A DNA stretch of 64,000 bases. It comes from an uncultured Acidobacteriota bacterium. Its GTDB lineage: Bacteria; Acidobacteriota; Vicinamibacteria; Vicinamibacterales; Fen-181. Below are positions 2,980-48,132 of this stretch, piece by piece; the stretch's first letter is position 1, and each line of letters opens with the position of its first letter. Both the position numbers and the translations under genes were made by a program. The DNA is taken from positions 42,357-106,356 of the forward strand of contig CAVRWB010000005.1 of NCBI GenBank assembly GCA_963724775.1, read 5' to 3'. The notes under the pieces were generated by a model. That model did not search any database and had not been told where the DNA came from. It worked only from the letters and a program-made list of their open reading frames with translations.

Positions 2980-3078
2980 TCGCCAATCGCCAATCGCCAA
3001 TCGCCAATCGCCAATCGCCAATCGCCAATCGCCAATCGCCAATCGCCAGTCGCCAATCGCCAATCGCCAAATCGCCAA
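2980..3078. repeat. Perfect heptamer microsatellite (TCGCCAA)n, about 14 copies
   Basis: Direct reading shows tcgccaa repeated in phase from 2980, with one tcgccag variant and a one-base phase slip near 3071. It decays into aaattcgccaaatcgtaaaatcgctaaatcc up to 3110. A complementary CGATTG-rich stretch lies at 2911..2950. Confidence 0.95.
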
Positions 3079-3115
3079 TGGCTAAATTCGCCAAATCGTA
3101 AAATCGCTAAATCCC

Positions 3116-3844
3116 TCAAATGTCTCCCTCGAGCATCCGCCGCAGTCGTTGAGCGTCTCTCGGCGCGTGGCCGCCGACGTCGTTGTTGAAATAGACGTAG
3201 ATGTTGCGGCCGGCCGCGCGGGGGGCGGCGAGCCAGCCGGCCCATCGGCGGAGCATGTCGTCCGGGTAGCGCCCATCATAGCGTTGCGGCCCGTGGAGGC
3301 GCAGGTAGACGAAAGGTCCAACGAGCACCGGAGGCGTTTCCGAGCCGGTCATGTCGTGCACGCATAGCGCGAAGCGGTGCCGCTGCAGCAGCGCAAGGAC
3401 GTCGTCGCGGTACCAGGAGGGGTCGCGGAACTCGATGGCCTGTGGGTGCCGTTTCGGCGCGGCCTCCAGGAAGGCGCGCAGGCGCTCGATGTCGCAGCCC
3501 CAGCGGGGCGGGAGTTGGTAGAGGACGGGGCCGAACCCGCGGAGGAGGTGCGATGCGCGATCGAAGATCCGCTTCACCGGCTCGACGGGATCCTTCAATC
3601 GCTTGAGATGGGTGAGGTACCGGCTGGCTTTCACCGCGAAGACGAAGCGCGACGGAACGCGCTGGCGCCAGGCGCCAAACGTTCCGGCTTCGGGCAGCCG
3701 GTAGAAGCTGTTGTTCACTTCGACCGTGTCGAAGCGCGTGGCGTAGTGCTCGAGCCAGCGCCAGGCTGGCAGGTCGTCGGGGTAGAAGCTGCCGCGCCAG
3801 TGGCGGTACTGCCACCCCGAACAGCCGATGAGCAACCTCGCCAT
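3116..3844 (-). CDS. DUF72 (YecE-like) family protein
   Basis: The 242-aa ORF reads [22 protein letters not shown]...[15 protein letters not shown]...[13 protein letters not shown]...VYFNND, which is typical DUF72 sequence. Confidence 0.9.
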
Positions 3845-4080
3845 CTGTCGCGTCCCCGGTACCCTCGCTGCGACCGGCGCCTGCCGGTGTCGCCGACAAC
3901 GTCTTCACACCTTCGCACGCTGATTGCCAAAGGTCTTCCGCCCCATCCGCTCCTCAAGATGGTGGGCGCGTTGCTCAACGCCGGGCGGTGCAGCGGCCGG
4001 CGAGGTTGTGGATGAGGCAAGGGCACGCGCGTCGGCGCAACGCGACGTTCTGAGTGGCAGCTGCCGCGCGCGGATTGCCA

Positions 4081-4213
4081 GGCGCTAAGCGCTTCGACTC
4101 GCAATTCCGGCCACGACCGCCTGCCAGCGTGCGTGGCCGGTCCTTCTCGCTCAGCACTTAGTCCTGAGGGCACAAATAGGTTGCCGTATTTGTGCATCGA
4201 AGGGCTAAGCGCC
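4081..4213. repeat. Structured intergenic repeat element, copy A (second copy at 59201..59340)
   Basis: Shares gcttcgactcgcaa...ggccacga...cacttagtcctgagggc-hairpin-gcatcgaagg with copy B. It contains the hairpin GCACAAATA/TATTTGTGC nested inside CTTAGTCCT/AGGGCTAAG. Confidence 0.65.
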
Positions 4214-4421
4214 ACGAGGATTGCACTTTGCAGCTCGCACGCGGCGCCCAGCACAGCGCCCGGCACAAAGGACCCGGCACGGACTCGCTATCGTCCTTCG
4301 TCCCCGGCCCATCCTTTGCTTAGTGTCCGCTTATACACACGAGCCTGCGTCGCCCGATTACACACCTTGGTGCCCCATTGGGTGATCCCACGAGCGTCCA
4401 ACGGGGCAAAGGACCGCGAGG

Positions 4422-10656
<6,235 letters not shown>

Positions 10657-10668
10657 GGGGCGGAGGAC

Positions 10669-12744
10669 ATGGTGAGCGAAACTCTGGAGGGCACGGCGCG
10701 GACCCAGGAGGAACGGGCGCCGGTGCGCATCCTCGTCGTGGACGACCGGCCGGAGAACCTGCTGGCGCTCGCGGCGATTCTCGACGCGCCAGACCGCGCG
10801 CTGGTCCTCGCGCGATCCGGCCGCCAGGCTCTGCGCGAGCTGCTTCGGCAGCCGTTCGCGCTGATCCTGCTCGACGTCAACATGCCGGAGATGGACGGCT
10901 TCGACACGGCGCAGCTGATCCGGACGCGCCCGGCGTCGGCGCACACCCCCATCATCTTCATTACTGCCGACCACGACGAGCGTCTCGCCACGCGGTCGTA
11001 CGCCATGGGCGCCGTGGACTACATCTTCGCGCCGGTGAACCCGGAAGTGCTTCGGGCGAAAGCGGCCGTGTTCGTCGAGCTGTTCCGCAAGACCGAGGAG
11101 AACCGCCTGCAGGCGGAGCAGCTGCGGCTGGCGGAAGAACGGCTGCGCCGCCAGGCCGAGCAGCAGCTGCGCGAAGCCGACGAGCGGCTGCGGCTCACCG
11201 TCGAGAGCGTCAGCGACTACGCCATCTTCTCACTCGACACGCACGGCCGGATCGCCACGTGGAACGCCGGCGCCACGCGGCTCTTCGGCTTCGACGACAG
11301 CGACGCCCTCGGCAGCGAGTGCGCGATGCTGTTTCCGCCCGAAGCGCGCGACGAGGAGCCGCACTGGCGAAAGGCCCTGGCCGAAGGGCGCACCGAGATC
11401 GAGGGGTGGTTCGAGCGGAAGGGGGGCACGCGGTTCTTCGGACGGGGCGTGGTGACCGCCATGCGGGACCCGACCGGCGAGATCCTTGGCTACAGCAAGG
11501 TCGTGCAGGACGTGACGGGGCGGAAGCAGGCCGAGGAAGCGCTCGCCCGCCAGGCCGAGCAGCTGCAGGAAGCCAATCGCCTGAAGGACGAGTTCCTCGC
11601 GGTGCTGTCGCACGAGCTGCGGACGCCGCTCAACGCGATCATCGGGTGGACGCACATGCTGCGGCGCGAGAGCCTGGAGCCGGCCGTCGCCCGGCAGGCG
11701 CTCGATGCCATCGCCCGCAACGGCCAGGCGCAGCTGGGCCTGGTCAACGACATCCTCGACGTCTCGCGGTTCATGGCGGGCAAGCTGCGCCTCAATCTCT
11801 CGACGGTGGATCTGCGAGACGTCGTCCGCGCGGCCGCGGACACCGGCGCCGTCACGGCGGGAGCGAAGGGAGTGGAGTTGCGGCTCCAGGTGGGAGACGA
11901 GCCGCTCCCCGTGAACGGCGACGCGGAACGCTTGCGGCAGGTGGTCTCGAACCTGGTGTCCAACGCCGTGAAGTTCACACCGTCGGGCGGCCATGTGACC
12001 GTCACCGTGGCGCGGCGCCACGACACGGCCTGCGTGTCGGTGTCCGACGACGGGATGGGCATCGCACCGGCGTTTCTGCCGCACGTCTTCGAACGCTTCC
12101 GCCAGGCCGATTCGTCGAGCGTCCGCGCTCACGGCGGCCTGGGCCTCGGCCTCGCGATCGTCCGGCACCTCGTCGAGTTGCACGGCGGCATCGCGCGGGC
12201 GGAAAGCGCCGGGACGGGCCGCGGCTCGCTGTTCGAGATCGTGCTGCCAGCGCTCGCGGACGCCCCACGCTCCTCGCAGCGCCGGGCGTACGCGCCCGTC
12301 CCGCGCGCGCTGGCTGCCGCGGAAGCGGCCGACGCGGCGAAGCCCGTCAACGTCCCCGGCGTCCGCTGCCTGGTCGTGGACGACGACCCGGACGCGAGGG
12401 CGATGCTGAAGGTGGCGCTCGAGCGGCGCGGGATGATCGTGACCGTCGCCGACTCGGCGAGCGCCGCGATGGACCAGGTGCAGTCGGCGCAGCTGCTGCT
12501 GGCGGACATCGGCATGCCGGGCGAGGACGGCTATTCGCTGATCCGCCGCGTCCGCGGTCTGCCTGCCGACCGCGGCGGGCGCGTGCCGGCCGTCGCGCTC
12601 ACCGCTTATGCGAGCGAGCGCGATCGCGACCTCGCGTTGGCCGCCGGCTTCGACCGCCACATCGCCAAGCCGGTGCAGCACGCGGAGCTGCTGCAGGTCA
12701 TCACGGAGTTGATGAAAGAGACGACGACGCCGCCGCCAGGGTAG
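10669..12744 (+). CDS. Hybrid histidine kinase: REC - coiled coil - PAS - HisKA - HATPase - REC
   Basis: The 691-aa ORF has GGAGGA upstream of its ATG. Supporting motifs are [12 protein letters not shown]...[13 protein letters not shown] (REC), a PAS-like [56 protein letters not shown] and a C-terminal REC ([11 protein letters not shown]...[13 protein letters not shown]...HIAKP). Confidence 0.9.
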
Positions 12745-12787
12745 CGGGCAGCGGGCAGCGGGCGGGCATTCTGGAAAGCGCAGGATT

Positions 12788-13490
12788 TCAGCCCTGCTCC
12801 TTCTCGAGCTTCTCCATCTTTCCGGCGTCGAGGACCTGCAGCAGCTCGGACACCAGCACCTGCTCGGGGACGGCGCCTTCCACGTGGATCACCTCGTTGA
12901 TGACGGTGCGCGGCACGCCGTAGACGTGGTACTTGTTGGAAAGGTGGGGAAACTCCGTTGCCTCGACGCAGTCCGCGGTGATCAGGTCGCTGGCGAAGGC
13001 GAGCTTGTGGGCGAGCAGCACGGCTCGCGGGCAGTGCGGTCACGTGGGTGTGACGAACACCTGGATGTGGACCGGCTCCTTCAGCTGTCCGATGGCCGAC
13101 AGGGTCTCCTCGCTCAAGCCGTGCTTGCCGGAGCCCACCATGCGCAGGTCCTCGAGCAGGTTGCTGAACTCGTAGCCCGCCGGGATTCCGAAGAACCGGA
13201 TGCGCGCGGACGCCGGCTCCGCGCCGTCGGCCGCCAGGACGATGGCCGGGATCTTGTCCACACCATACGCCTTCGCGAGCGCCTCGTCGGCCTGGAAGTC
13301 CTTCACCTCGAGCGACACCTTGTCGGACAGCGCGGCCACCTCCTGGGCAAGCTCGCGCGTTTCGCTGCAGGTACTGGCATTCGAGCGCGCCGCCGTCGCC
13401 CTGCGTGAACATCACCATCCGCACCGGCCGCTCGATGGCGGACAGCGCCGCCTGAACCTGCTTGCGCACGCGATCGTCGAGAAGAGGCAT
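12788..13490 (-). CDS. PDO-type (glutaredoxin-like, double thioredoxin fold) protein disulfide oxidoreductase; in-frame TGA at 13042..13040 (Sec candidate) and a 1-nt frameshift near 13370
   Basis: Three ORF-track pieces join into one family-typical protein of about 233 aa. The pieces are [40 protein letters not shown] | [25 protein letters not shown]...HIQVFVTPT | TGA | [48 protein letters not shown]... Confidence 0.7.
13011..13028 (-). other. Candidate bacterial SECIS-like hairpin downstream of the in-frame UGA
   Basis: The mRNA sense reads UGA-ccgcacugccc-GCGAGC-CGUGCU-GCUCGC. This is a perfect 6-bp stem with a 6-nt loop containing GU, starting 11 nt after the UGA. Confidence 0.35.
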
Positions 13491-13513
13491 GGGACCCCCT
13501 GACGGGAGAATCT

Positions 13514-13606
13514 GGCAATTTGTCGATTTGTCGATTTTTCGATTTTACGATTCTGGGTGGAAATCGCCAAATCGCGAAATTGCCACAATCGCCAAATCAC
13601 AAATCC
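13514..13606. repeat. Intergenic AT-rich short-tandem-repeat hairpin (CGATTT arm versus AAATCG arm)
   Basis: ggcaatttgtcgatttgtcgatttttcgattttacgatt - ctgggtgg - aaatcgccaaatcgcgaaattgccacaatcgccaaatcac. The right arm shares the AAATCGCCAA word with the 2980..3110 array. Confidence 0.8.
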
Positions 13607-13791
13607 GTCATCGGCCCTGGGCAGGCGTCCCGCCAGGCATTCCCGCCAGGCGTGGTGCGCAAGGCTTCCGGCTCGCCGATCGCCTCCGCCGCGCCGGTCG
13701 CTTCCGCTCCGCCGATCGCGGCGGCTTGCCTGGCGCGCCGCGCCGCCGTAGACTGCTGTCGGCTCACGTCGCATCTCGATCCTCAACAGTC

Positions 13792-15354
13792 ATGCGCCTG
13801 CCACGCCACGGCGTGCTGCTCGTCCTGGCCTTTGCCGCCCTTCTCGGACGCCCGGCGCCCGCTCGCCCGGCGACTGTCCGGGTGCCAACGCTCTCGGCGC
13901 TCACCTCCCGCGCCGAACGCATCGTGGTCGGGGAAGTGATCGAGGTGCGCTGCGAGCGCGAGACGGTTCGGGGCGAGGATGTGCCCATCACCCTCGTCAC
14001 CGTTCGCGTGGCGCGCACGCTGAAAGGCGCGGCGGCCAGCCAGATGGTGCTCGAGTTCCTCGGCGGCCGCCTGGACGCGCAGAGCCTGGACGTGTTCGAC
14101 CTGCCTCGCTTCGCGGTTGGCGATCGGGACGTGCTCTTCCTCGAGCCGGCATCGCGCAGCGTCAGCCCGCTCGTCGGCCTCATGCACGGCCGCTTCCGGC
14201 TCGTCGCCGCCGAGGAAGCGCCGCGCGAGCGCGTGGCGGCTCACGACGGCCGCCTCCTCACGTATGCCGATCTCGCGGAGGACGAGGCGGGCGCCGCGAC
14301 GCGGCGGTCGGCTTCTGCGCCGATTCGACCGGTGTCTGTCGCAACGTTCGAGACGAAAGTGCTGGAACTGGTGGCGCGCGGTGCGGCCGCCGGAGGGGCA
14401 GGTACCGCGGCGGTTCTTTCCGAAGGCGCGCCGCTCGATCAGCGGGTCGAGCCCGTCGCGCTGTCGTCGCCGGTGCCGCTTGCCATCGACGTGAACCTCG
14501 GCTCGGCGCCCGCGCTCTTCGACGGGTGCCCTGACTGGTCGTGCGCCCTGGCGTCGCGGGAGTCGTTTCGGCGCCTGGCCGGACCCGCCGGCACCTCGCC
14601 GGCGAGCGGCGAGGCAGGCGCGGAACGTGTGTCGATGGAGTGGGGACGAAGCGTGTTCGGGCGGGCGATGAATGCCGACACGCTGGCGCTGACGCTGCGG
14701 AAGACGAACGCCAAGGGCGCCGAGGCGACAATCGTGTTCAACGATCGCCTCGCGTGGAACTCGTACGAGGGCAGCGGCCGGCGGTCGCCGGCGGGGGACT
14801 GGCTCGTGGATCTTCCCAGCATCGCGTCGCGCGAACTCTCGGTCCTCGCTGCGGGTGTCGCCGCGGGCACGGCCTCGAGCGAAACGCCCACGGCCGCGAC
14901 GTCTTCGGCTCGCGGGCAGCGAGGCGCCTCCGGCGTTCGCTCGTCGCGCACGTCGGCCGACACGGGACCGCTCGACGTGTGGGCCTCGGCCTCCGGGTGC
15001 GACCCGGGAGGCGTCTTCGTCGACCCGCGGCTGCTCGTGTTCGACTCGCCCGATCACGCGCTGATGACCGCCTACCAGGTCGGCTTCTTCCTGCCCGACG
15101 CCCCGTCCCCGGCGCAGACGGTGGACGTCCCGCTCACCGCGTTCCTCATCCGCCGTGTCGTCGACCTGCCGTCGTGGGCCTCGCTCGCGATGCAGTCGTC
15201 GCTCGTCGCCGACATCCGCTCGGCCGGCCTCGCGACGCCGCTCGGCGTCGTCTACACCTACCGGGTGCGTGGCGTCTGGGCCGGCGGCACGACGGCCTGG
15301 TCCGACAGCAGCCAGCCATTCGTCCGCTGCGCCGCCGCGGCGGTCGCGCGCTGA
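13792..15354 (+). CDS. Hypothetical secreted protein (520 aa)
   Basis: ATG 13792 gives a signal-peptide-like start (MRLPRHGVLLVLAFAALLGRPAPA). The frame stays open with G/C third-position bias. I do not recognise a family. Confidence 0.55.
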   Translation: MRLPRHGVLLVLAFAALLGRPAPARPATVRVPTLSALTSRAERIVVGEVIEVRCERETVRGEDVPITLVTVRVARTLKGAAASQMVLEFLGGRLDAQSLDVFDLPRFAVGDRDVLFLEPASRSVSPLVGLMHGRFRLVAAEEAPRERVAAHDGRLLTYADLAEDEAGAATRRSASAPIRPVSVATFETKVLELVARGAAAGGAGTAAVLSEGAPLDQRVEPVALSSPVPLAIDVNLGSAPALFDGCPDWSCALASRESFRRLAGPAGTSPASGEAGAERVSMEWGRSVFGRAMNADTLALTLRKTNAKGAEATIVFNDRLAWNSYEGSGRRSPAGDWLVDLPSIASRELSVLAAGVAAGTASSETPTAATSSARGQRGASGVRSSRTSADTGPLDVWASASGCDPGGVFVDPRLLVFDSPDHALMTAYQVGFFLPDAPSPAQTVDVPLTAFLIRRVVDLPSWASLAMQSSLVADIRSAGLATPLGVVYTYRVRGVWAGGTTAWSDSSQPFVRCAAAAVAR

Positions 15355-15368
15355 GAGTAGTGCCCGAA

Positions 15369-15388
15369 GGCAAAGCTGGAGCTTTGCC
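15369..15388. terminator. Post-stop palindromic hairpin of the GGC(A/G)AAGC family
   Basis: ggcaaagc-tgga-gctttgcc lies 15 nt after the stop at 15354. There is no U-tract. Confidence 0.4.
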
Positions 15389-15454
15389 CCACACCTGGTA
15401 CACCGCTGGTTGCTTGCTCCACACGTCAGACACGAGCAGGGAGGCCCGCGACGC

Positions 15455-16180
15455 CTATGCGAGCACCAGCGGCTCGCGCTTGAAGCGCCACAGCGCAATC
15501 GCCAACGCCGCCGCCGAGCCGAGCGCACAGCACGCCGCGATCGCGAGCACGACGCGGCCGGGTGACAGGGCCTCCGGCGTGAGCGGCAGGTTCAGCCGGC
15601 GCGCCAGGTACGGCAGCGCAGATGGCAGGCCGTAGATCAGGATGAACGGCACCAGCATCCGCTGTCCCGCCGCCCGTGCCGTCGGCGCCGTCATGGACAC
15701 GAGGATCGCCACCGTCGTGAGCAGCAGCGGCAGGAGCAGGCCGATCGAGACGATTGCCGCGAGGATGCCCGGCGCGAAGAACAGTAGCCGTCCGTGGCCG
15801 AACGCCAGGCTCACGGCCACCACGGCCACGGCCTGTCCCGCGAGGATCACGCCCCACCCGTAGAGCGTGATCGCGAGGAGCTTGCCCAGGAGGATGGCCG
15901 CGTTCGGCAGACGCGTCGCCAACAGGGTTTCGAGCGTATGGCGCTCGCGCTCGCCGGCGAACGTGTCCGCCGCGTAGTTGAGGAGGAGGATGGCCGGGAA
16001 GCACGCGCTGTAGACCGTGAACCACGATGTCATCCACGTCGCGCCCGTCTGCAGCGGGAAGAGCAGGCCGGCGATGCCGATGAGGACGAGCACGTTGCGG
16101 GCGCCGCCGTGGAAGCGCCCGTCCGGCATGAGGATCTCGAACAGCTCCTTGCGGAGCACCGTCAGCATGTCGTTCAGCAC
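15455..16180 (-). CDS. ABC-2 type transporter permease
   Basis: The 241-aa product is a hydrophobic multi-pass protein. Its start overlaps the stop of the ATPase gene by 7 nt. Confidence 0.75.
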   Translation of the reverse strand: MLNDMLTVLRKELFEILMPDGRFHGGARNVLVLIGIAGLLFPLQTGATWMTSWFTVYSACFPAILLLNYAADTFAGERERHTLETLLATRLPNAAILLGKLLAITLYGWGVILAGQAVAVVAVSLAFGHGRLLFFAPGILAAIVSIGLLLPLLLTTVAILVSMTAPTARAAGQRMLVPFILIYGLPSALPYLARRLNLPLTPEALSPGRVVLAIAACCALGSAAALAIALWRFKREPLVLA

Positions 16181-17157
16181 GGGATGGCCTCCGTCCGTTC
16201 CGTCGTGGTCTCGCGCGCCGGCGCCCGGTCTTCGACGAGATCGAGGAACAGGTCCTCGAGGCTCGCCTTGTGGCGCCGCACTTCTTCAACCGCCGCCCCT
16301 GCCCCGACTGCGGCCGCGACGAGGTCCGCCACGTCCGCCCCATCGCGCAGAGCCACGATGATCTCCGAGCCGCGCGCCTCCACGCCGGAGACCTCGGCCC
16401 GGTCGCGCAGGATGGACGCGACGCGGGCATCGAGGCCGCGCCCGGCAATCGTCACCTGCGGCTGGCCGCTCATTCGCTCTCGCAGGTCGGACGGCGCGCC
16501 CGCCGCCAGCAGCTTGCCATTTCGCACCACGGCCACCTGGTGGCACAACCGCTCCGCCTCCGTCAGGTTGTGCGTCGTGAGGAACACCGTCGTGCCGTCG
16601 TGCCGCGCCAGCGCCGCCAGATCGTCGCGGAGCGCCGCCGCCGCCACCGGGTCGAGCCCGGCCGTCGGCTCGTCGAGGAAGACGAGCGCCGGCCGCGGCA
16701 GCAGCGCCCGCGCGACGGCCAGCTTCTGCTTCATCCCGCGGCTCCACTCGCGGATTGGCTCGCGCCGTCGATCCCACAGCCCGATCTGCGCGAGCACGTC
16801 CTTGATCCGCGCCGCCCGGTCGCCTGCGGGCATCCTCGCGATCCTGGCGTAGTAGTCCAGGTTCGCTTGCGCCGACAGCCGATCGTAGAGCCCGGTGTGT
16901 TCGAGGAGCGCGCCCGCTCGCGCCCGGATCGCGTCGGCGTCCCGGGCGACATCGAACCCGAGCACGGCGGCCCGTCCCTCGCTCGGCGCGAGGAGGCCGA
17001 GGAGCAGGCGGATGGTGGTCGTCTTGCCGGATCCATTCGGGCCGAGGAAGCCGAACACCACGCCTCGGGGAATCTCCAGCGACAGTCCATCAACCGCCCG
17101 GAGTGCGCCGAAGCGCCGCGTCAGCCTGTCGATCTCGATCGCATTCGGTTCGTGCAT
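16174..17157 (-). CDS. ABC transporter ATP-binding protein
   Basis: Walker A is GPNGSGKTT, the signature is SRGMKQKLAVA and Walker B is LVFLDEPTAGLD. Confidence 0.9.
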   Translation of the reverse strand: MHEPNAIEIDRLTRRFGALRAVDGLSLEIPRGVVFGFLGPNGSGKTTTIRLLLGLLAPSEGRAAVLGFDVARDADAIRARAGALLEHTGLYDRLSAQANLDYYARIARMPAGDRAARIKDVLAQIGLWDRRREPIREWSRGMKQKLAVARALLPRPALVFLDEPTAGLDPVAAAALRDDLAALARHDGTTVFLTTHNLTEAERLCHQVAVVRNGKLLAAGAPSDLRERMSGQPQVTIAGRGLDARVASILRDRAEVSGVEARGSEIIVALRDGADVADLVAAAVGAGAAVEEVRRHKASLEDLFLDLVEDRAPARETTTERTEAIPC

Positions 17158-17181
17158 GGTTCCCCTCTGCGACGCCGCGCG

Positions 17182-17499
17182 TCACTTCGTCATGCTGGCG
17201 ACGACCTTCTTCAGGTAGTCGCGATAGCGGCGGAACGAGTTCCTCCCCTCCGCTGTCATGCGGCAGATCGTCAGCGGGACCTTGCCCCGAAACGTCTTTT
17301 CGATCTCGACGTAGCCGCCAGCCTCGAGCTTCGCCAGGTGCGACGAGAGGTTGCCCTTCGACAGGCCGGTTTCGCGCAGCAGGTAGAGGAAGTCGGCGCT
17401 GTCGGCGGCATAGAGGATGGTCATGATGACGCGGCGAGCGGGCTCGTGGAGCAGCCGGTCCGCGCCCTCGTCCTCCTGCTGAACGGTCGCCGGCGTCAT
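17182..17499 (-). CDS. Winged-helix transcriptional regulator (ArsR/MarR-like)
   Basis: The 105-aa product reads ...FLYLLRETGLSKGNLSSHLAKLEAGGYVEIEKTFRGKVPLTICRMTAEGRNSF. Its start overlaps the upstream gene stop (ATGA). Confidence 0.7.
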   Translation of the reverse strand: MTPATVQQEDEGADRLLHEPARRVIMTILYAADSADFLYLLRETGLSKGNLSSHLAKLEAGGYVEIEKTFRGKVPLTICRMTAEGRNSFRRYRDYLKKVVASMTK

Positions 17500-18122
17500 G
17501 CCTGCTCTCCCGGCGGCGCCTGCCGCAGGTAGGCGCGGAACGCGAGGAGGCCGCCAGCCGCCATCGCGCCGCCCGTCCAGAGGAAGAGCAGCCCGGAGGC
17601 CAGGTTCTCGTCCAGGCGCAGGAGCGCGAGGCCGAGGCCGGCGACCAAGCAGAGGAGGGCCTCGACGGGGAAGCGCGGCAAATGCACCTTGCGCCCGAGG
17701 TACAGGAATGCGGCGGCGACGAGGAGGCCCTGCAGCGCGGGCAGCCAGGACAACACCGCGGGGGCGCGGGCGAGCACCACGATGACGAAGGCCATGAGGC
17801 CGCCGACGATGCCGCCCACCCAGCCGGTTCGGCGGTTGCGCCGCTCGAAGGACACGTAGCCCGTTCGCGGATGGACGTAGCGGTCCTTCAGCTTCGACAC
17901 GAGGCGGCGCACGGCGAGGCCGAGGCCGATCACCAGGACCGGAAAGCCGATAGCGAAGAACGCCCGGAAGGGGGGCTGCTTGGGGAGGACGCCCTGGAGA
18001 ACGAGGAAGACGCCGATCAACACGAAGAAGACGCCGACGAGCGTTTCCTGGAGGCCGTCCTCGAGCCAGTAGAGGGCGGCGCGGCGGGTGGCCTTGTCGA
18101 TGTCAGCCTGGAGCGGGTCCAT
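17496..18122 (-). CDS. Hypothetical integral membrane protein, first gene of the regulator/ABC operon
   Basis: The 208-aa product has 4-5 hydrophobic segments, and AAGGAGG precedes the ATG. Confidence 0.65.
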   Translation of the reverse strand: MDPLQADIDKATRRAALYWLEDGLQETLVGVFFVLIGVFLVLQGVLPKQPPFRAFFAIGFPVLVIGLGLAVRRLVSKLKDRYVHPRTGYVSFERRNRRTGWVGGIVGGLMAFVIVVLARAPAVLSWLPALQGLLVAAAFLYLGRKVHLPRFPVEALLCLVAGLGLALLRLDENLASGLLFLWTGGAMAAGGLLAFRAYLRQAPPGEQA

Positions 18123-18182
18123 CGGTGCCTCCTTGCGGTTCGACTGCGCGGACTAGTCTGTACTGCAAACCGGTCTGCCGCA

Positions 18183-18211
18183 AATATAGGGCCCGGGATG
18201 GGAACTGTCAA
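18183..18211 (-). promoter_or_regulatory. Sigma70-like promoter for the 18122..15455 operon
   Basis: The minus strand reads cTTGACA-gttcccatcccgggccc(17 nt)-TATATT. A near-palindrome GCAGACCGGTTTGC (18166..18179) and GACTAGTC (18151..18158) lie between the -10 and the ATG. Confidence 0.5.
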
Positions 18212-18451
18212 GGCCGGATTCACCGACGAGACGCCGAGACGCCGAGACGCGGAGAACGAAGAGCCAAGAGGCGCCTCTGCGTCCTCCGCGGCTCTGCGGT
18301 TAGACGGACCTCCAGATGTTCTGGCAACTGCCGCCCGGTGCAGGTCTTGCTGTCTCAGCCGCCCAGGGCCGCTCTTTTTGCTGTTCAGCTGGCCGACCTG
18401 GATGGTACGCTCACGAAGGCCCGGCTGGGCGGCGGGGACCTTGGAGCACGC

Positions 18452-19126
18452 ATGGAATCGTCTGCCTTTATTCCGGAGATCCCGCGAGTGGCGGGATCGA
18501 CGGCCTCGCACGGGAGCGGGCTGCGCGCCACCGCCAGCGCCGCCACGCGCGATCTCTACACCTGGGCCAACCTGGTCACCGCCGTTCGCGTCGCGGCGGC
18601 CTTTGTCGTCTTCGCCGCCGCCTGGCAGACGGGCTTGCTGCGATGGAGCCTGTACGGTCTCCTGATCTACTGGGTCGGCGATCTGCTCGACGGCTACCTG
18701 GCGCGGACGCTGCGGCAGGAAACGCTGCTCGGCGCGCAGTTGGACATCCTGGCCGACCGCGTCCTCGTGATCATGTTCTACGTGAGCTACATCGTGCACC
18801 GGCCGGGCAAGAGCGCCGCCGCGCTCCTCTTCCTCTTCGAGTTCGCGGTGCTCGACACCTACCTGTCCAATCAGTTCATGCGCTGGCCGATCCTGTCGCC
18901 CAACTACTTCTACATCGTCGACCGCCAGACGTGGACCTGGCTCTGGTCCAAGCCGGCCAAGGCCTTCAACTGCGGCCTCGTCACGCTCCTCCTCATCGGC
19001 CTGCCCTGGCAGTGGCCCGCGCTGGCCGCGACGCTGGCGCTGATCGGGATCCGCCTGTTCTTCTCCTACCGGATGCTGCTGTTGACCAGCCACCTGCCCG
19101 CCCCGCCGCCGGTTCCCGAAGGGTAA
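18452..19126 (+). CDS. CDP-alcohol phosphatidyltransferase family protein
   Basis: MESSAF... contains GDLLDGYLARTLRQETLLGAQLDILADR, which fits D-x2-DG-x2-AR-x8-G-x3-D-x3-D. The protein is multi-pass. Confidence 0.8.
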   Translation: MESSAFIPEIPRVAGSTASHGSGLRATASAATRDLYTWANLVTAVRVAAAFVVFAAAWQTGLLRWSLYGLLIYWVGDLLDGYLARTLRQETLLGAQLDILADRVLVIMFYVSYIVHRPGKSAAALLFLFEFAVLDTYLSNQFMRWPILSPNYFYIVDRQTWTWLWSKPAKAFNCGLVTLLLIGLPWQWPALAATLALIGIRLFFSYRMLLLTSHLPAPPPVPEG

Positions 19127-19134
19127 CGGCGCGG

Positions 19135-19605
19135 ATGCCAACACTTCTCGCGTTCGGGGCCTATGCCTCCGCGTTCGGCCTGGGCTACCTCAGCGCCCTC
19201 GTTCCGTTGGTCAACTCGGAGGTGCTCGTCCTCACCTACGCCGCCCTCGCGGGTCCCGGTCACTTGGGCCCGCTCGTCGTCGCGGCCGTCGTCGCGGCGG
19301 GCCAGATGCTGGGGAAGTGCACGCTCTACATGATGGGCCGCGGCGCGGCAAAGATCCCGTCGGCGCGGCACCAGCGGGCGATCGAGCGCTGGGGCGATCG
19401 GTTCTCGCGGTCGCCCCGCGCGGTGATGCTGTTCGTGTTTTTCAGCGCGGCCAGCGGCTTTCCCCCGTTCTACGCGGTGAGCGTGCTCGCGGGGTCCTTT
19501 CGGGTCAACATCGTGGCATTCTTCCTGGTTGGCCTCGGCGGGCGGTTCATCCGGTTCGGGATCCTGGCGCTGTTCCCCGGCTGGCTGGGCGTCGGCCGTC
19601 ATTAG
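19135..19605 (+). CDS. Small membrane protein, YqaA/DedA-like (VTT domain)
   Basis: The 156-aa hydrophobic product starts MPTLLAFGAYASAFGLGYLSALVPLVNSEVLVLTYAAL... and begins 9 nt after the previous stop. Confidence 0.5.
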   Translation: MPTLLAFGAYASAFGLGYLSALVPLVNSEVLVLTYAALAGPGHLGPLVVAAVVAAGQMLGKCTLYMMGRGAAKIPSARHQRAIERWGDRFSRSPRAVMLFVFFSAASGFPPFYAVSVLAGSFRVNIVAFFLVGLGGRFIRFGILALFPGWLGVGRH

Positions 19606-19689
19606 TTGGGTAGGGGTCCCTGCCTGCCGCGACGGAGCAGGCGGATCCGAACGGCCGCATGCGGCGTCTCAGCGTAAAGGAGGTTCGAC

Positions 19690-20220
19690 GTGCTGTCCTC
19701 GCTCGCGTTCATGCTCTCGCTGGCGGCGATGGAGTCCGCGCCTGTCAAGGCCGTCCCCTCGGTGGACCTGGAACGGTACGTCGGCCGGTGGTACGAGATT
19801 GCCCGCTATCCCAACGTCTTTCAGAAGAGCTGTGCTGGCGATGTGACCGCGACCTACGAGCGGCGGCCCGACGGACGCATCCGCGTCGTCAACCAGTGCC
19901 GGCGCGAGGATGGGACGATCAACCAGGCGGAGGGCGAAGCCAAGGTCGTGGACGGCGCCGGCAATGCCCGGCTGAAGGTCCGCTTCGCGCCGGGCTGGCT
20001 GAGCGTGCTGCCGTTTGTCTGGGCCGACTACTGGGTGATCGGCCTGGCGGATGACTACCGGTGGGCGGTCGTCGGCACGCCGAATCGCAAGTACCTGTGG
20101 GTCCTGGGTCGTTCCGCCGAGATGAACGAACGCGATTGGGCTGCGGCGGCCGCGATGGCCAAGGAGAACGGCTTCGACCTCGCGCGCCTGCAGCGTACGG
20201 CGCACGGGCCGACGCCGTGA
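19690..20220 (+). CDS. blc: Bacterial lipocalin (Blc-like outer membrane lipoprotein)
   Basis: VDLERYVGRWYEIARYPNVFQ...VVNQC...ARLKVRF...ADYWVIGLADDYRWAVVGTPNRKYLWVLGR. It has a GTG start preceded by AAAGGAGG. Confidence 0.85.
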   Translation: MLSSLAFMLSLAAMESAPVKAVPSVDLERYVGRWYEIARYPNVFQKSCAGDVTATYERRPDGRIRVVNQCRREDGTINQAEGEAKVVDGAGNARLKVRFAPGWLSVLPFVWADYWVIGLADDYRWAVVGTPNRKYLWVLGRSAEMNERDWAAAAAMAKENGFDLARLQRTAHGPTP

Positions 20221-20230
20221 GGGAGTGGTC

Positions 20231-20605
20231 ATGGCTCGAGTGAGCTCCGGCCTTGCGGATGCGGCGTACACGCTGCTGCGCGTGGTAAGCGGCCTGCTGT
20301 TCGCCCAGCATGGTGTCCAGAAACTGCTCGGCCTGCTCGGCGGCACGCGGGTGCCGCTCATGTCCCAACTTGGAGCAGCCGGGGTCATCGAGCTCGTGGC
20401 GGGCCTGATGATCGCGCTCGGGGTCTTTCCCCGCTGGGCGGCTTTCATCGCCTCGGGCGAGATGGCCTATGCGTACTTCACGCGCCACGCGCCGCAAGGC
20501 ATGTGGCCGGTGGTGAACCGCGGCGAGCTCGCGGTGCTCTACTGCTTCGTGTTCCTCTATATCGCCGCGCGCGGCGGCGGGCGCTGGGGCATCACCCGCC
20601 AGTAG
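20231..20605 (+). CDS. DoxX family membrane protein
   Basis: MARVSSGLADAAYTLLRVVSGLLFAQHGVQKLLGLLGG...ELVAGLMIALG. An alternative GTG start lies at 20225. Confidence 0.75.
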   Translation: MARVSSGLADAAYTLLRVVSGLLFAQHGVQKLLGLLGGTRVPLMSQLGAAGVIELVAGLMIALGVFPRWAAFIASGEMAYAYFTRHAPQGMWPVVNRGELAVLYCFVFLYIAARGGGRWGITRQ

Positions 20606-20614
20606 GGACTTACC

Positions 20615-21359
20615 GTGACCTCACAGGATTTCCGCGTGGCCTGGCAGGCGGGAGCGCAGGCGGGCGACATATCGGCGCGGCTCTATCAGGCGGCGGGCGG
20701 CCCGCTGGCGTGGCTGATCCTCGCACCCGGCGCGGGCGCGGGCCACGACCACGACTTCATGGTCACCTTCGCGCGCGCCTTCGCCTCGCGCGGCCTGAAT
20801 CTCGTCACGTTCAACTTTCCTTACATCGAGCGCGGACGCCGCGTGCCGGATCCGAACGCCACGCTCGAAGCGTGCTGGCAGGCCGTGATTGCCGCCGTCC
20901 ACGAGAAGGCGGGCACGGGCACGAGCATCTTCGCCGGCGGCAAGTCGATGGGCGGCCGCATCGCATCGCAGGTCGCAGCGCACAAACCACAAAGCTCGAG
21001 CTTTGCGCCACACCTCGTCGCGCCACGCGGGGCTCGCGCCGCACCTTGTCGCCGGCCTCTCGGGCCTCGTGTTCCTCGGCTACCCGCTGCATCCACCCGG
21101 GCGGCCGGACCAGCGGCGCACCGCGCACTGGCCTCACGTCCGGGTGCCCGCGCTGTTCATTCAGGGCTCGCGCGACCCGTTCGCCTCGCCGGAGGAACTT
21201 CGCGAGGAACTCCCGCGCTTCGGCGCCGAAACGCGACTGCTCATCGTGGACGACGGCGATCATTCCTTCAAGGTGCGGCGCCAGGCCGGCCGCGCGCAGG
21301 CGGCCGTTTACGCGCAGGTGCAGGAATGGGTCCTCGAATGGATCAGTGCCAGGTGCTGA
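20615..21359 (+). CDS. Alpha/beta hydrolase (dienelactone hydrolase / KANL3-like family), interrupted by a 1-nt frameshift at the G-run 21029..21032
   Basis: The N-terminal frame reads ...LILAPGAGAGHDHDFM...FAGGKSMGGRIASQVAA. The C-terminal frame reads GLAPHLVAGLSGLVFLGYPLHPPGRPDQ...ALFIQGSRDPFASPEEL...DGDHSF. Removing one G from gggg joins the two frames. Confidence 0.75.
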
Positions 21360-21362
21360 GTG

Positions 21363-21547
21363 CGGGGTACGAAGTGCAAGCACCCCCTGCACCTGGTGCA
21401 CGAGGTGCAAGCGCGGATGCGCTTGGTGCACAAGGTGCAAGGTGCAAGGGGGGCAGCAGGGGAGGTCACTCCGTGCACCAAGTGCGAAGCGGCGTTGCAC
21501 CCCCGTGCACGAAGTGCGAAGCGGGCCTGCACCCGTGCACCCCCCGG
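21363..21547. repeat. Intergenic GTGCA-rich repeat block with inverted arms
   Basis: ggtgcacgaggtgcaagcgc (21398..21417) is complementary to gcgttgcacccccgtgcacg (21491..21510). The block also holds tandem ggtgcaa units and a direct repeat gtgcac-N-aagtgcgaagcgg. Confidence 0.7.
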
Positions 21548-21551
21548 ACGG

Positions 21552-22508
21552 TCAGGCGCTTTCCAGCGGGATCTTCTGCGCGTTGGCGGAGAGCCACTGG
21601 TCGAAGGTCTGCAACCCGGGGTTCAGGCGGCGGCTCTGGTCGAGGCTGCGCGCGCCCACGAAGTCCTTGTTGAAGTCGCGCTTGAACTGAAACATGTTGC
21701 CCATGTCGTCGGCGCCGGGGAAGCCGAAGCTCCGGTAGACCTCCGGCGGGACATCGTTGTACCGCACCTCGCGCCCGAGGGCCCGCGACAGCTTCTCCGC
21801 CATCTGCGCGCCGGTGAGGTGCTCGCCGGCGATGCCGACCGTCTTCCCGATGAACTCCTGGCCGGCCTTGAAGATGCCCAGCGCGCACTTGCCGATGTCC
21901 TCGGCCGCGATGCCCGGCAGCGCCTTGTCGCCCATCGGGAGCGTCAGCGCCAGGACGCCATCCGGCCCCGGCTTCGGCCCTGCGCCGAAGTAGATGAAGT
22001 TGTCCCAGTAGAAGCTGGTGTTGAGCAGCGTCACGGGCAGGCCCGCGTCCACGAAGATCTGGTTCGCCTCGCCCTTGCCGTCGAAGTGCGGCACCTTGTA
22101 CTTCCCGTGCAGCGTGGGCATGCGGTCGTCGCTCAGCGGTATCCACCGGCGCGTGTCTTCCAGCGTCGACCAGATCACGTGCTGCACGCCGGCGGCCTTG
22201 GCCGCGGCCGCCATGTTGCGCGCCTCCGCAATCTCCTTCTCGGCTGAGAAGTGCGCCCAGAAGAACGTCACGCAGAACGCGCCGTAGGCGCCCTGGAACG
22301 CCCGCTTCAGGCTCTCGACGTCGTCCACGTCCGCGGCGACGACCTCGGCACCCAGCGCCGCGAGCTCCTGCGCCTTGGGTGAGTTCACGTCGCGCGTGAT
22401 CGCGCGTGCCGCGAACTGGCCCGACCTGTCGTTCAGGATCGCGCGCAGCAGACCTCCGCCCTGCGCGCCCGTCGCTCCGACCACGGCAATCACCTTCGTT
22501 GGGGGCAT
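21552..22508 (-). CDS. NmrA-family NAD(P)-binding protein
   Basis: Starts MPPTKVIAVVGATGAQGGGLLRAIL (ATG 22508, GAAGGAGGA upstream). NmrA-like sequence runs throughout. Confidence 0.85.
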   Translation of the reverse strand: MPPTKVIAVVGATGAQGGGLLRAILNDRSGQFAARAITRDVNSPKAQELAALGAEVVAADVDDVESLKRAFQGAYGAFCVTFFWAHFSAEKEIAEARNMAAAAKAAGVQHVIWSTLEDTRRWIPLSDDRMPTLHGKYKVPHFDGKGEANQIFVDAGLPVTLLNTSFYWDNFIYFGAGPKPGPDGVLALTLPMGDKALPGIAAEDIGKCALGIFKAGQEFIGKTVGIAGEHLTGAQMAEKLSRALGREVRYNDVPPEVYRSFGFPGADDMGNMFQFKRDFNKDFVGARSLDQSRRLNPGLQTFDQWLSANAQKIPLESA

Positions 22509-22679
22509 TCGTCCTCCTTCCCGGCCACGGGCCGGGAGCGTGCGGCCGCGTGCGGGCCTGCGGATCGAGGTCCGCGGTCCGCGCACGGCTGTGTTTCAGG
22601 TTCAACTTTGATTATGTCCTGGATCGCGCCTCCCGAGGCACGGGAGTACAATGGGCCCACACCGACAGGAAGGGCCCCC

Positions 22680-23813
22680 ATGATTCTTTCCGCACGGGAT
22701 TCCGATCGGCCGCCGGATTCGCCGCCTGCCGGACCGGGCGAGATTCCTCGGCTTCCCTCGTTCCTCTTCGGCGAGCAGCGGGTTCGCGTGGAACGCGAGC
22801 GGCCGCGCGAAGCGCAGGTAGGCGCCGATCTGGTCACTCGCATCCACGGACGGCGTCGCCGTCGCCGGCACACGGTCCTGGCGCTCGCGCTTGGCGCGGG
22901 TCTGATCCTCCTAGCGCTCGTGGCCATCCCCCGGCTCGGCGCGTTCCGCGCAAGGCCCGCCCCGCCCGCGACGGCCGGCACCCTCGTCATCGAGTCGGAG
23001 CCTGCGGGGTGGCACGTGTGGGACGGCGAGATCGACCGCGGCGCGACGCCCCTCACGCTGGTCCTGCCGGCCGGGCAGCGATCGCTCGTCCTGCGTCGCG
23101 GCACCGCGATGCGCGAGCTGCAGGCCGACGTGTCCTCCGGCGGGCGGACCGTCTACCACCTCGACCTGCCCGGTCCGCCGCCCACGGGCGACCTCCACGT
23201 GAGCACGAAACCGCCTGGCGCGATCGTCGTCGTGGATGGAGACGGACGCGGGCTGTCGCCGGTCGACGTGCGCGATCTGAAGGCCGGGCGCCACGCCGTC
23301 ACGATCTTGCACGGCGACCGCGTGCTGACCGAGGCGGTGACCATCGAAGCGGGGCGCGCGGCGTCGCTGATGATCCCGCTCGACGAGGCCGCAGCCCCCG
23401 CGGTTGGCTGGGTGGTGATCCAGTCGGACGTGGAGTTGGAGGTGTACGAGGGAGAGTCGCTCGTGGGCAGCAGCCGCAACGCGCGGCTGCTGTTCATGCC
23501 CGGCCGCCACGTGCTGCGCCTCGCGAATCGCGACCTGAACGTGGATGCCACCCGGATCGTGCAGGTCCAGCCGGGCGCCACGGCGAGCGTGCCGGTCCGC
23601 CTGCCGGCGGGCAGCCTGTCGGTGAACGCCTCGCCGTGGGCCGAGGTGTGGATGGACGGGGCGAAGATCGGGGAGACGCCGATTGCCAACTACGCTGCGC
23701 CACTGGGATCGCACGAGGTCGTGCTGCGCCACCCCAAGTTCGGCGAACGGCGGCGCCTCGTCGTCGTGGCGCAGGGCCAGCCGGTGCGCATCGGCGTAGA
23801 CCTGCGCGAGTGA
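22680..23813 (+). CDS. Single-pass membrane protein with PEGA-like repeats
   Basis: It has a TM segment (VLALALGAGLILLALVAI) followed by repeated beta-rich modules (LVIESEPAGWHVWDGEIDRGATPLTL; LHVSTKPPGAIVVVDGDGRGLSP; LSVNASPWAEVWMDGAKIGETP). The start is uncertain (22608 or 22680). Confidence 0.6.
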   Translation: MILSARDSDRPPDSPPAGPGEIPRLPSFLFGEQRVRVERERPREAQVGADLVTRIHGRRRRRRHTVLALALGAGLILLALVAIPRLGAFRARPAPPATAGTLVIESEPAGWHVWDGEIDRGATPLTLVLPAGQRSLVLRRGTAMRELQADVSSGGRTVYHLDLPGPPPTGDLHVSTKPPGAIVVVDGDGRGLSPVDVRDLKAGRHAVTILHGDRVLTEAVTIEAGRAASLMIPLDEAAAPAVGWVVIQSDVELEVYEGESLVGSSRNARLLFMPGRHVLRLANRDLNVDATRIVQVQPGATASVPVRLPAGSLSVNASPWAEVWMDGAKIGETPIANYAAPLGSHEVVLRHPKFGERRRLVVVAQGQPVRIGVDLRE

Positions 23814-27317: not shown

Positions 27318-28301
27318 CTACTTGAACGCGCGCTGCAGCGCCGCCTCCACGCGTTCGCGTCCGAACGCCCGTTCCTCGCACAGGAAGCGCACGATGCCAT
27401 CGACGTCCGGCGTTCCGGTCGTGAGGTCGAAATCGTCCGTGACGTCCGGCGAGAGGTAGATGCGGCGGACCGCGTCGGCGCCGGGGAGGACCGCCTGGCG
27501 GATCTCCGGCGGCATGTCTTCCAGACGGCCATGCTTCCGCACCAACTGAAGCGCCTTCTTCGGGCCGATGCCCTTGATGCCGGCGTTGAAGTCGGTGCCG
27601 ACGAGCAGCGCGAGATCGATCAACTGCTCGCGCGTGATGCCCAGCGCATCCAGCCAGCCGGCAAGGTCGATCAGTTCGGGCGAGATCGGCCTGAAGCTGC
27701 CCTTGCTCGGAAGGAATTCCTTCCCGGAGAACGTGACGAAGCGGACCAGCCGGGGCGTGCCGAACAGCAGGGTGTCGTAGTCCTTGCTCACGGCGGCCCA
27801 GGCCGCGCCGCACGCCGCCATGTGTGCGGCCTGCGCCTCGCCTTCGGACGGCGCCTGGACGGCGGGGATCCCCATCAGCCGCAGCAGTTCCCGGGCCTCG
27901 CCCACCATCTCGCGCGACAGCCTCGAGGTCATCGTCGATTTCGAGTAGGCCCGGGCCGCGTCACCGTCTGCACGGGCGGACGCGGCTTCCTCGTCGTATC
28001 GCTGCTTCACCGCGCGCCGCTTCTCGATCTCGGCCGCCTTCAACGGAGGAGGCGCGCCGTCGAAGACGAACGCAGGCTTGACCGCGTGCTCGGCGAGCAG
28101 CCGGGTCGTGCGGTAGAAGAGCCCCGACAGATGCGAGGTGACGCGGCCGGCCGGGTCGCGAAGCGGGGTGCCGTCGGGCAGCCGGATCAGCGCGAGGAAC
28201 TGGTACAGCTCGCCGTTGCCGTCGATGGCCACGGGCCGGCCGCGCAGATCTTCGAGGCCGATCGGCTGCTTGACGACGATCGGCGTGAGGACGACGCCCA
28301 T
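27318..28301 (-). CDS. XPG/Rad2-family flap endonuclease 1 (archaeal/eukaryotic-type FEN1)
   Basis: MGVVLTPIVVKQPIGLEDLRGRPVAIDGNGELYQFL...TSHLSGLFYRTTRLLAEHAVKPAFVFDGAPPPLK...LMGIPAVQAPSEGEAQAAHM...SKDYDTLLFGTPRLVR...LLVGTDFNAGIKGIGPKKAL. The product is 327 aa. Confidence 0.8.
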   Translation of the reverse strand: MGVVLTPIVVKQPIGLEDLRGRPVAIDGNGELYQFLALIRLPDGTPLRDPAGRVTSHLSGLFYRTTRLLAEHAVKPAFVFDGAPPPLKAAEIEKRRAVKQRYDEEAASARADGDAARAYSKSTMTSRLSREMVGEARELLRLMGIPAVQAPSEGEAQAAHMAACGAAWAAVSKDYDTLLFGTPRLVRFVTFSGKEFLPSKGSFRPISPELIDLAGWLDALGITREQLIDLALLVGTDFNAGIKGIGPKKALQLVRKHGRLEDMPPEIRQAVLPGADAVRRIYLSPDVTDDFDLTTGTPDVDGIVRFLCEERAFGRERVEAALQRAFK

Positions 28302-28399
28302 GAGGACATGACAGCCCAAAGCCACGGCCAGGTCAAATGCGTGCGCATCGTCCCTCTGCCGAGTGCCCAGTTCACCCTTTATGCTGTCCATGCGACGCG

Positions 28400-28645
28400 T
28401 CTTGGATCGGCACAGAGACACAGGGAGCACGGAGGCGAAGCCTTGGGTGGCCTTCGGGCGTTCGGCAGCCGACCGCCGCTGCGGCCGCCGGCGCCGTGCC
28501 GGGCGAGCACGCGCCGCCGACCTCAATCGCGTGTTCGCCCGGTGCGGCGCTCGCGGCCGCGCGCGCATCGCGCGCGCGAAGGCCGGACCGGTCGCTCCCG
28601 GTTGCACTGCCGGGGTCGCTCTGTGCCTCTGTGCCTCTCTTGATC
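28400..28645. mobile_element. MITE-like non-autonomous element: about 20-bp terminal inverted repeats flanked by an 8/9-bp direct repeat
   Basis: The layout is TCTTGGATC | ggcacagagacacagggagc ... gctctgtgcctctgtgcctc | TCTTGATC. The interior is GC-rich and has no credible ORF. Confidence 0.4.
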
Positions 28646-34822: not shown

Positions 34823-34948
34823 CCTCCGGGAGAGGTCGAGGTGTTAGACGACGTCCGGGTGAAACGGGTTTGCCGGGCTCGCTTGCCTGCACCGTTCCTC
34901 TTGCCGGAGAATTCTACTCAGGCGCTTCATCTGGTTGAAGGAGTAGTC

Positions 34949-40256: not shown

Positions 40257-40259
40257 CGC

Positions 40260-44219: not shown

Positions 44220-44442
44220 GCCGTGATCGCTTGGTGGGTCGGATGCCCGGTCCCGGAACGCCTCGTCCCGGAAGCGGACGCGGTCCAGCGGTGGGCCATC
44301 GTGCGGTCGCCAGGCCGCGCCAGCGGCAGCAGGGGTTCGGCTGTGTTGGGTGGTTGGCACGTCTTTCGCCTGTCGCTTGGCGACCAGTCCGCCGGTCGCG
44401 GACGTCTGAATGTCGTCGTCGCTCGCGTGAAAGGAGACGGGC

Positions 44443-47970: not shown

Positions 47971-48132
47971 CACCCCAAGAGATCACCGCGGAGCAAGGCC
48001 CGACGCTGACGGCTGAGAGTTGACCGCTGACCGAAGCGTCCGGCGTTAACCCCTTCACCCCTCCATCCGTATTGTCGATGGGGCCGGCAGCGCCGTTGCG
48101 CCAATCCAACACTCCGGGATCTAGGAACGAGC

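Follow-up and report, generated by a model that had tools for sequence, protein, structure and literature searches.

PDO-type selenoproteins, a family also known as 'glutaredoxin-like domain protein' and as homolog of the AhpF N-terminal domain, have reportedly been catalogued since 2004, in work that citing reviews attribute to Kryukov and Gladyshev. In the biochemistry of PDO and AhpF proteins, reduction is by a thioredoxin-reductase-like flavoprotein, and the targets are protein disulfides or peroxiredoxins. The PDO family has the status 'predicted' in the selenoprotein tables of PMC9312934 and 'predicted with high confidence' in a table of PMC13188914. In PMC1794560 (2006), the family is one of the 25 bacterial selenoprotein families counted, the hosts of the PDO selenoprotein being Carboxydothermus hydrogenoformans and Symbiobacterium thermophilum, and three selenoprotein families are credited to the Acidobacteria. 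With regard to the decoding of UGA in bacteria, SelB with Sec-tRNA(Sec) is described in PMC9312934 as binding the hairpin, and according to PMC1088965 the consensus of the bacterial SECIS includes an apical-loop guanosine.

The locus described here lies in a stretch of 64,000 nucleotides (64 kb; the window) from an uncultured Acidobacteriota bacterium. The gene is carried by the minus strand at 13490..12788 and is split in three pieces in the deposited sequence. Its features are as follows.

13490..12788, minus strand: the whole candidate PDO-type selenoprotein gene, from the ATG (13490..13488) to the stop TGA (12790..12788)
13379..13367, minus strand: N-terminal redox motif C-Q-Y-C, TGC CAG TAC [C] TGC, broken by the extra C at 13371/13370
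13042..13031, minus strand: C-terminal redox motif U-P-H-C, TGA CCG CAC TGC, with the proposed Sec codon at 13042..13040
13039..12791, minus strand: second thioredoxin fold, 83 codons, translated only with read-through of the UGA
13028..13011, minus strand: candidate SECIS hairpin GCGAGC-CGUGCU-GCUCGC, 11 nt after the UGA

Frame 1, which starts at the ATG at 13490, becomes nonsense after the extra C. Frame 2 runs to ...HIQVFVTPT, then the TGA at 13042..13040, and continues to ...EKEQG and the second TGA at 12790..12788. An earlier note on this DNA had described two minus-strand ORFs, 13339..13040 and 13021..12788, as the halves of one oxidoreductase; both were found, with lengths of 99 and 77 aa, and the read-through in frame 2 joins them. 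A database look-up of the 99-aa ORF yielded no record. With the extra C deleted and the UGA taken as Sec, the repaired conceptual product is 233 aa long.

With Cys written for Sec, the repaired translation matched the NCBIfam model TIGR02187.2 ('PDO_seleno_TRX', product name 'protein disulfide oxidoreductase') with 273.5 bits against a curated cutoff of 185, residues 6-218 covering profile positions 2-208 of 209. Two thioredoxin-type domains were assigned by Pfam, with Thioredoxin_3 in two stretches. The best solved structure was the P. furiosus PDO 1A8L (E=9.6e-43, residues 3-220), with which both CxxC motifs align (CQYC and CPYC). The TGA column falls on the first Cys of CPYC, in agreement with the reading in frame 2 and with the position, the first Cys of the C-terminal CPxC motif, at which the earlier note had placed it. 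The N-terminal CxxC is intact only without the extra C, as in the three related contigs described below. Homologues number in the thousands, with 70-73% identity and the sequence TPTCPYCP in the nearest full-length proteins, and the Cys-form homologues are single proteins of 225-240 aa. The named relatives of the window PDO are from Vicinamibacterales and Chloroflexota, and together with those of the window's tricorn protease they suggest a host from an uncultured group of Acidobacteriota. An alignment with PDO homologues had been proposed as a check in the earlier note; Cys occupies the column in the closest full-length proteins, and TGA occupies it in at least 120 species genomes.

Likeness over the full length was also seen for the PDOs of archaea and Aquifex as a group (1A8L, P. 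horikoshii 1J08, A. aeolicus 2AYT and A. pernix 2HLS; E=1e-42 to 4e-22), but these proteins have Cys, not Sec, as the first residue of the C-terminal motif, and their hosts are hyperthermophiles. The N-terminal domain of AhpF (1HYU, 1ZYN, 4O5Q; E about 1e-8 to 1e-9) has the same double thioredoxin fold, and its redox-active CxxC is in the second fold, as it is here. In AhpF this domain is part of a fusion with a flavoprotein reductase and supplies AhpC, whereas the window PDO is a stand-alone gene. By analogy, the likeness to AhpF suggests an electron-relay role for the window PDO.

With the catalogued Sec-PDO family the locus shares the HMM family, the two-fold architecture, the position of Sec in UxxC and a hairpin of the type expected of a bacterial SECIS. 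The examples of 2006 were from Firmicutes and Actinobacteria, whereas the host here is an uncultured Acidobacteriota; the UPHC motif and the 1-nt insertion in the other motif aside, nothing essential sets the locus apart from the catalogued family. The earlier note knew of no such selenoprotein for this PDO architecture or for this lineage. The former view is contradicted by the cataloguing of the family as a UxxC selenoprotein and by its NCBIfam name, and the latter by the selenoproteins with which the Acidobacteria were already credited in 2006. The window gene adds one more member to a selenoprotein family that had been described before, and its phylum was likewise known for the use of Sec.

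The TGA was compared in closely related sequences. A 149-aa protein (P0093) is 97% identical to the N-terminal half of the product and ends exactly at ...VFVTPT; its contig L001 (GCA_024640805.1), with 98% DNA identity, has the same TGA and the same hairpin. The TGA is also kept in L122, a 574-kb ENA contig with 99.25% identity over window positions 3044..23495, and in L123, a 950-bp JGI contig with 99.7% identity, and judged from their sequences these two are other assemblies of the same population as the window. Three Logan contigs, known as called genes only, encode the intact 149-aa N-terminal product, in two of the three cases together with an adjacent 77-aa ORF. Downstream of the TGA, the window and L001 differ by four synonymous and two non-synonymous changes.

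A search with the pattern GTN ACN CCN ACN TGA CCN YAY TGY CC was performed against 185,579 species-representative genomes. At least 120 loci, with the TGA in one column, were found in at least 120 species genomes, compared to a handful expected by chance according to our own estimate (about 39 bits, about 1.2e12 positions). All 120 matches listed were PDO homologues with TGA in the Sec column, and in nearly all of them 70-85 conserved in-frame codons follow the TGA. The phyla among the matches listed were Chloroflexota, Acidobacteriota (Terriglobia and Vicinamibacterales), Actinomycetes (Gaiella and Thermoleophilia), Bacillota (Alicyclobacillus, Sulfobacillus and Desulfosporosinus), Gemmatimonadota, Armatimonadota, NC10, Zixibacteria and Ignavibacteria. 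In pairwise comparisons of 116 Sec-form genes, the divergence at the three codon positions was 0.34/0.28/0.60 downstream of the TGA and 0.41/0.28/0.61 upstream of it, and the downstream profile also equalled that of the Cys-forms. This matching, third-position-dominated divergence on both sides of the TGA indicates that the sequence after it is translated and that purifying selection acts on it.

A private nonsense mutation or a sequencing error at the TGA is untenable, as the TGA is kept in the relatives and in at least 120 species and the sequence downstream is under selection. A reassigned genetic code was ruled out, since TGA is an ordinary stop in the window, where it ends 15 of the 30 called ORFs (this gene included). 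A search of the 64-kb window for further in-frame TGAs, as a sign of Sec use, gave none: only the TGA at 13042..13040 has a coding-like composition both before and after it. The reading of the gene in the earlier note as a candidate selenoprotein with a UPHC motif is borne out by the TGA in at least 120 species, by the curated status of the family and by the contrast between the hairpins of Sec-forms and Cys-forms presented below. We assign a probability of about 0.88 to the reading that the UGA encodes selenocysteine as the first residue of the C-terminal CxxC, in a gene of the PDO type that has a SECIS-like hairpin.

The change of frame in the N-terminal motif is due to a single extra C (TAC-C-TGC at 13371/13370, C to CC), and its deletion restores E-C-Q-Y-C-S-E-T-R-E-L. 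The contigs L001, L122 and L123 all read TAC-TGC, with no extra C. A second private 1-nt insertion is present in the window at 10517/10518 (GG to GGG relative to L001), where it frameshifts the C-terminal receiver domain of the adjacent HAMP-repeat histidine kinase and results in an artificial 2833-aa ORF (4422..12923). In addition, 14 small indels separate the window from L122 in 20 kb. The lack of the extra C in the relatives, the second private insertion and the 14 indels make an assembly error the most likely explanation, and the extra C at 13371/13370 is quite probably an assembly artefact. The 1-nt frameshift about which the earlier note had cautioned does exist, but it is most likely not a sign of decay, since the extra C is absent from the three related contigs. 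Programmed frameshifting at CQYC was rejected, as the relatives simply lack the extra base.

The hairpin GCGAGC/CGUGCU/GCUCGC at 13028..13011 was found as claimed in the earlier note, 11 nt after the UGA and with G/U in the loop. It dominates the local MFE fold, with -9.1 kcal/mol when folded alone, has a 6-bp stem and a loop starting 17 nt after the UGA, and lies within the codons for P-R-A-V-L-L-A; the Arg codon in the window is CGA, and its A faces the U in the Leu codon CUC. The fdhF-type SECIS of E. coli is likewise a hairpin within the ORF that lies 11 nt past the UGA, and its apical loop is small and includes G-U. Compared with it, the window hairpin has a shorter stem (6 bp), no bulged U and no Rfam match, and hairpin register and loop size vary between PDO subfamilies. 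The window hairpin on its own did not differ from dinucleotide shuffles (z 0.02), nor was there excess stability relative to synonymous-codon resampling (z -0.24, p=0.40). No family for SECIS, nor any other of relevance, was matched in Rfam, either at the gathering threshold on the whole window or at E up to 10 on 12700..13600. The only Rfam matches were miRNA-like, to a palindrome upstream.

As a control, 120 Cys-form loci were collected from metagenomes with the same pattern, with TGY in place of TGA, and hairpins were counted in 116 Sec-forms and 116 Cys-forms, related sequences being taken as independent in the tests. Hairpins with 5 or more bp and a start at +11..+18 were present in 84% of the Sec-forms versus 45% of the Cys-forms, and those with GU in the loop in 61% versus 15%. 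After GC matching, these values were 82% versus 42% (Fisher p=3e-5) and, for the GU-loop hairpin, 63% versus 18% (Fisher p=8e-6). In each GC bin, the segment +9..+45 was more stable in the Sec-forms than in the Cys-forms (-12.8 versus -10.0 kcal/mol at 68-75% GC, for instance), and the folds of the Sec-forms were also more stable than those obtained by resampling their synonymous codons (mean z -1.17, n=119). The start of the Sec-form hairpin was focused at index 13-14 and the commonest loop was CGUGCU; the window hairpin (start 14, 6 bp, CGUGCU) belongs to this modal class.

Covariation was seen between column 17, the second base of the codon that follows Pro (G for Arg, C for Pro and A for Gln), and column 30, the third position of Leu (CTC/CTG/CTT), giving the stems GCGAGC/GCTCGC, GCCGGC/GCTGGC and GCAAGC/GCTTGC. 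This covariation was significant in Sec-forms (p=6e-4) and not in Cys-forms (p=0.55), and the two columns formed Watson-Crick pairs in 43 of 86 Sec-forms versus 30.3 +/- 3.8 after permutation. No family-wide helix emerged when the window's helix was imposed in fixed register across the Sec-forms (65.7% of cells paired versus 64.3% in shuffles), or when RNAalifold was applied to the codon-aligned 48-nt segment of 119 Sec-forms. The subfamilies shift the register of the stem, with 5- or 6-nt loops and GGCC-type stems. The data support the hairpin as a real SECIS at the level of the family, with the window copy as a typical example, and the significance of the window hairpin comes from the cross-family comparison only.

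Several other explanations of the locus were weighed against the selenoprotein reading. A true pseudogene, inactivated twice by a nonsense TGA and a frameshift and now decaying, might be suspected from two lesions that hit both catalytic motifs of a single gene, from the individually non-significant window hairpin and from the lack of Sec machinery in the 64-kb window. Against this, the TGA is conserved across at least 120 species, ahead of a domain under purifying selection, and it is kept in every related assembly; the frameshift is private to the window's assembly, which has other single-base indels, and no further disabling mutations occur downstream. This origin is considered very unlikely. 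The extra C does stand in the deposited sequence, and it could also be a genuine insertion of 1 nt into CQYC that very recently killed a real selenoprotein gene in this strain. However, the base is missing from two contigs more than 99% identical (L122 and L123) and one 98% identical (L001), and the Logan contigs encode an intact 149-aa N-terminal half. The change is one of homopolymer length (C to CC), like the private GG to GGG insertion at 10517/10518, and the 14 indels against L122 in 20 kb are the signature of assembly error, all of which makes a recent inactivation rather improbable.

That the locus encodes two small proteins, a 149-aa thioredoxin-like protein ending at the TGA and a 77-aa protein from the GTG at 13021, is hardly credible, even if gene callers give these two ORFs on L001, L122, L123 and two of the three Logan contigs. 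The 77-aa ORF would start inside helix alpha-1, with neither strand beta-1 nor either of the two redox residues; the ORFs are separated by 18 nt that encode, in frame, a perfectly conserved P-H-C-P-R-A, and the Cys-form homologues are single proteins. With regard to the hairpin, it might be a by-product of the P-R-A-V-L-L-A codons in a GC-rich genome, the UGA being decoded without it or by means of another element. The z of -0.24 for the window copy, the hairpins in the same zone in 45% of the Cys-forms and the lack of family-wide fixed-register covariation are concordant with this idea. It is nevertheless an unlikely one, given the enrichment in Sec-forms, the focus of the start at 13-14 and the GU-loop bias after GC matching, the covariation of columns 17 and 30 in Sec-forms only, and the CGA Arg codon in the window, with its A opposite the U of CUC.

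If the selenoprotein reading is correct, the mRNA would be read from the ATG at 13490, and the hairpin at 13028..13011 would recruit SelB with Sec-tRNA(Sec) to the UGA at 13042..13040. Sec would be inserted as the N-terminal, attacking residue of U-P-H-C in the second thioredoxin fold, where it would be exposed at the N-terminus of helix alpha-1 and could form a selenenylsulfide with Cys153 during turnover. Translation would go on through 83 codons to the UGA stop at 12790..12788, giving a product of two thioredoxin folds, with C-Q-Y-C and then U-P-H-C, which would serve in the cytoplasm as a thiol-disulfide oxidoreductase. If it resembles the archaeal PDOs and the N-terminal domain of AhpF, its reductant would presumably be a thioredoxin-reductase-type flavoprotein, and in its reduced form, by analogy with PDO and AhpF biochemistry, the protein may act on protein disulfides or peroxiredoxin-type partners. 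The Sec insertion, the binding of SelB, the reductant and the substrates are all inferred here.

Neither selA, selB nor selD was found among about 29 window ORFs by Pfam annotation of the 64 kb. With ARAGORN, no tRNA-Sec, and no tRNA at all, was detected in the window, and no linked tRNA-Sec was detected at 60 Sec-PDO loci. No conserved partner gene was seen near Sec-PDO in 107 upstream and 100 downstream neighbours of the matches listed; an ECF sigma factor was located upstream in 11 of 107 loci and an AhpC/TSA-Redoxin gene downstream in 7 of 100. The lack of a conserved neighbour fits a stand-alone general oxidoreductase.

According to the genome search, UxxC PDO is common across soil and subsurface phyla, which is useful to selenoproteome surveys and is not new biology. 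One tentative view, which we hold to be possible but somewhat doubtful, is that Sec-PDO is much commoner in aerobic soil phyla than the older anaerobic examples would imply, maybe with repeated switching between Cys and Sec, and that its SECIS exists in register classes that co-evolve with the sequence of helix alpha-1. The soil phyla in question may be Acidobacteriota, Chloroflexota, Gaiellales/Thermoleophilia and Alicyclobacillus, and an example of such co-evolution may be that the residue after the Pro following UxxC dictates the Leu codon. The hairpins kept in Cys-forms could be 'fossil' SECIS elements.

The value of the window finding is an annotation correction. Sec-PDO genes are split by gene callers, into 149 and 77 aa in the relatives and into 99 and 77 aa plus a frameshifted head in the window, so that the selenoprotein is missed in the window's MAG and in related ones; correct annotation requires a transl_except for Sec. 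The frameshift at this locus also illustrates that indel-prone assemblies can mimic pseudogenisation. Four MacB/FtsX-type permease paralogues are also encoded in the window, together with tricorn, S9 and S15 peptidases, beta-lactamase-fold proteins, an ABC transporter and two-component systems. The named relatives of the window's tricorn protease are from Blastocatellia, Pyrinomonadaceae and Acidobacteriota, with 66-69% identity.

Some Cys-form loci of the PDO gene (those with TGY at the first position of the C-terminal CxxC; L124, L140, L149 and others) retained a similar hairpin downstream of the TGC or TGT codon, and these hairpin-keeping loci encoded the same P-R-A-V-T/L-L-A-H sequence. 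Their hairpins may be fossil SECIS elements left by conversion of Sec to Cys, or a mere by-product of coding.

The region immediately upstream of the PDO start codon was repetitive, and short-period tandem arrays were also present in intergenic positions elsewhere in the window:

13505-13593, AT-richer 5' region with two opposed arrays of 8-nt units, immediately upstream of the PDO start codon
2980-3113, intergenic tandem array of TCGCCAA, 14 copies, 95% matches
1373-1440, intergenic tandem array of GGAGAAC, 9.7 copies

The opposed arrays upstream of the PDO gene (ATTTGTCG and AAATCGCC, approximately four copies each) jointly formed a 33-nt inverted repeat with 82% complementarity and a 23-nt gap. 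An Rfam search returned miRNA-like noise on both strands. This inverted repeat may represent an operator, or else a repeat belonging to the promoter region. A GGCGATT core was common to these upstream repeats and the TCGCCAA array, and TTGGCGATTT, allowing at most one mismatch, occurred 21 times in the window versus 1.7 expected occurrences.

The contig of GCA_024640805.1 (L001), which was 98% identical to the window DNA, contained approximately 5 kb of extra sequence separating the PDO gene from the next gene present in both (L001 1655-6633 versus window 13556-13682), encoding a protein resembling TonB-dependent receptors along with a 498-aa membrane protein. This extra sequence was absent from the window, and apparently also from L122, a 574-kb ENA contig. 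The difference is a structural variant adjoining the PDO gene.

Comparison with L001 also revealed a second single-nucleotide insertion private to the window, in a sensor kinase gene containing a long repeat:

4422..~10656, + strand, giant HAMP-repeat histidine kinase gene
4844-7829, tandem repeat of a 276-nt unit, 10.8 copies, 86% identity, TRF score 3852

At 10517-10518, GG in L001 was GGG in the window, and L122 was likewise one base shorter than the window. The insertion causes a frameshift in the C-terminal receiver domain, because of which the kinase ORF is artificially extended to 12923 (2833 aa), across the next kinase gene. The tandem repeat, which encodes the long HAMP/HAMP_2 domain array, is liable to assembly trouble. 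Frameshift-like breaks were found in two other contigs, both of long-read-style MAGs: in L021, a Sec-form locus from an Actinomycetes MAG, the PDO frame was lost approximately 12 codons downstream of UPHC, and in L122 (10746-15184) a 691-aa kinase was broken into several ORFs. These breaks support indel errors as a general problem of such assemblies.

Other genes in the window were as follows:

27321-28643, - strand, ORF with XPG_N and XPG_I domains (Pfam E=1e-16 and 2e-23), FEN1/XPG-type nuclease
32225-34843, 40257-42893, 44431-46944 and 48031-50556, four paralogous MacB_PCD + FtsX duplicated-permease genes

The XPG_N/XPG_I annotation is uncommon in a bacterial genome. The four permease paralogues (~840-880 aa each), all within 20 kb, resemble the arrangement of duplicated orphan permeases that characterises Acidobacteria.
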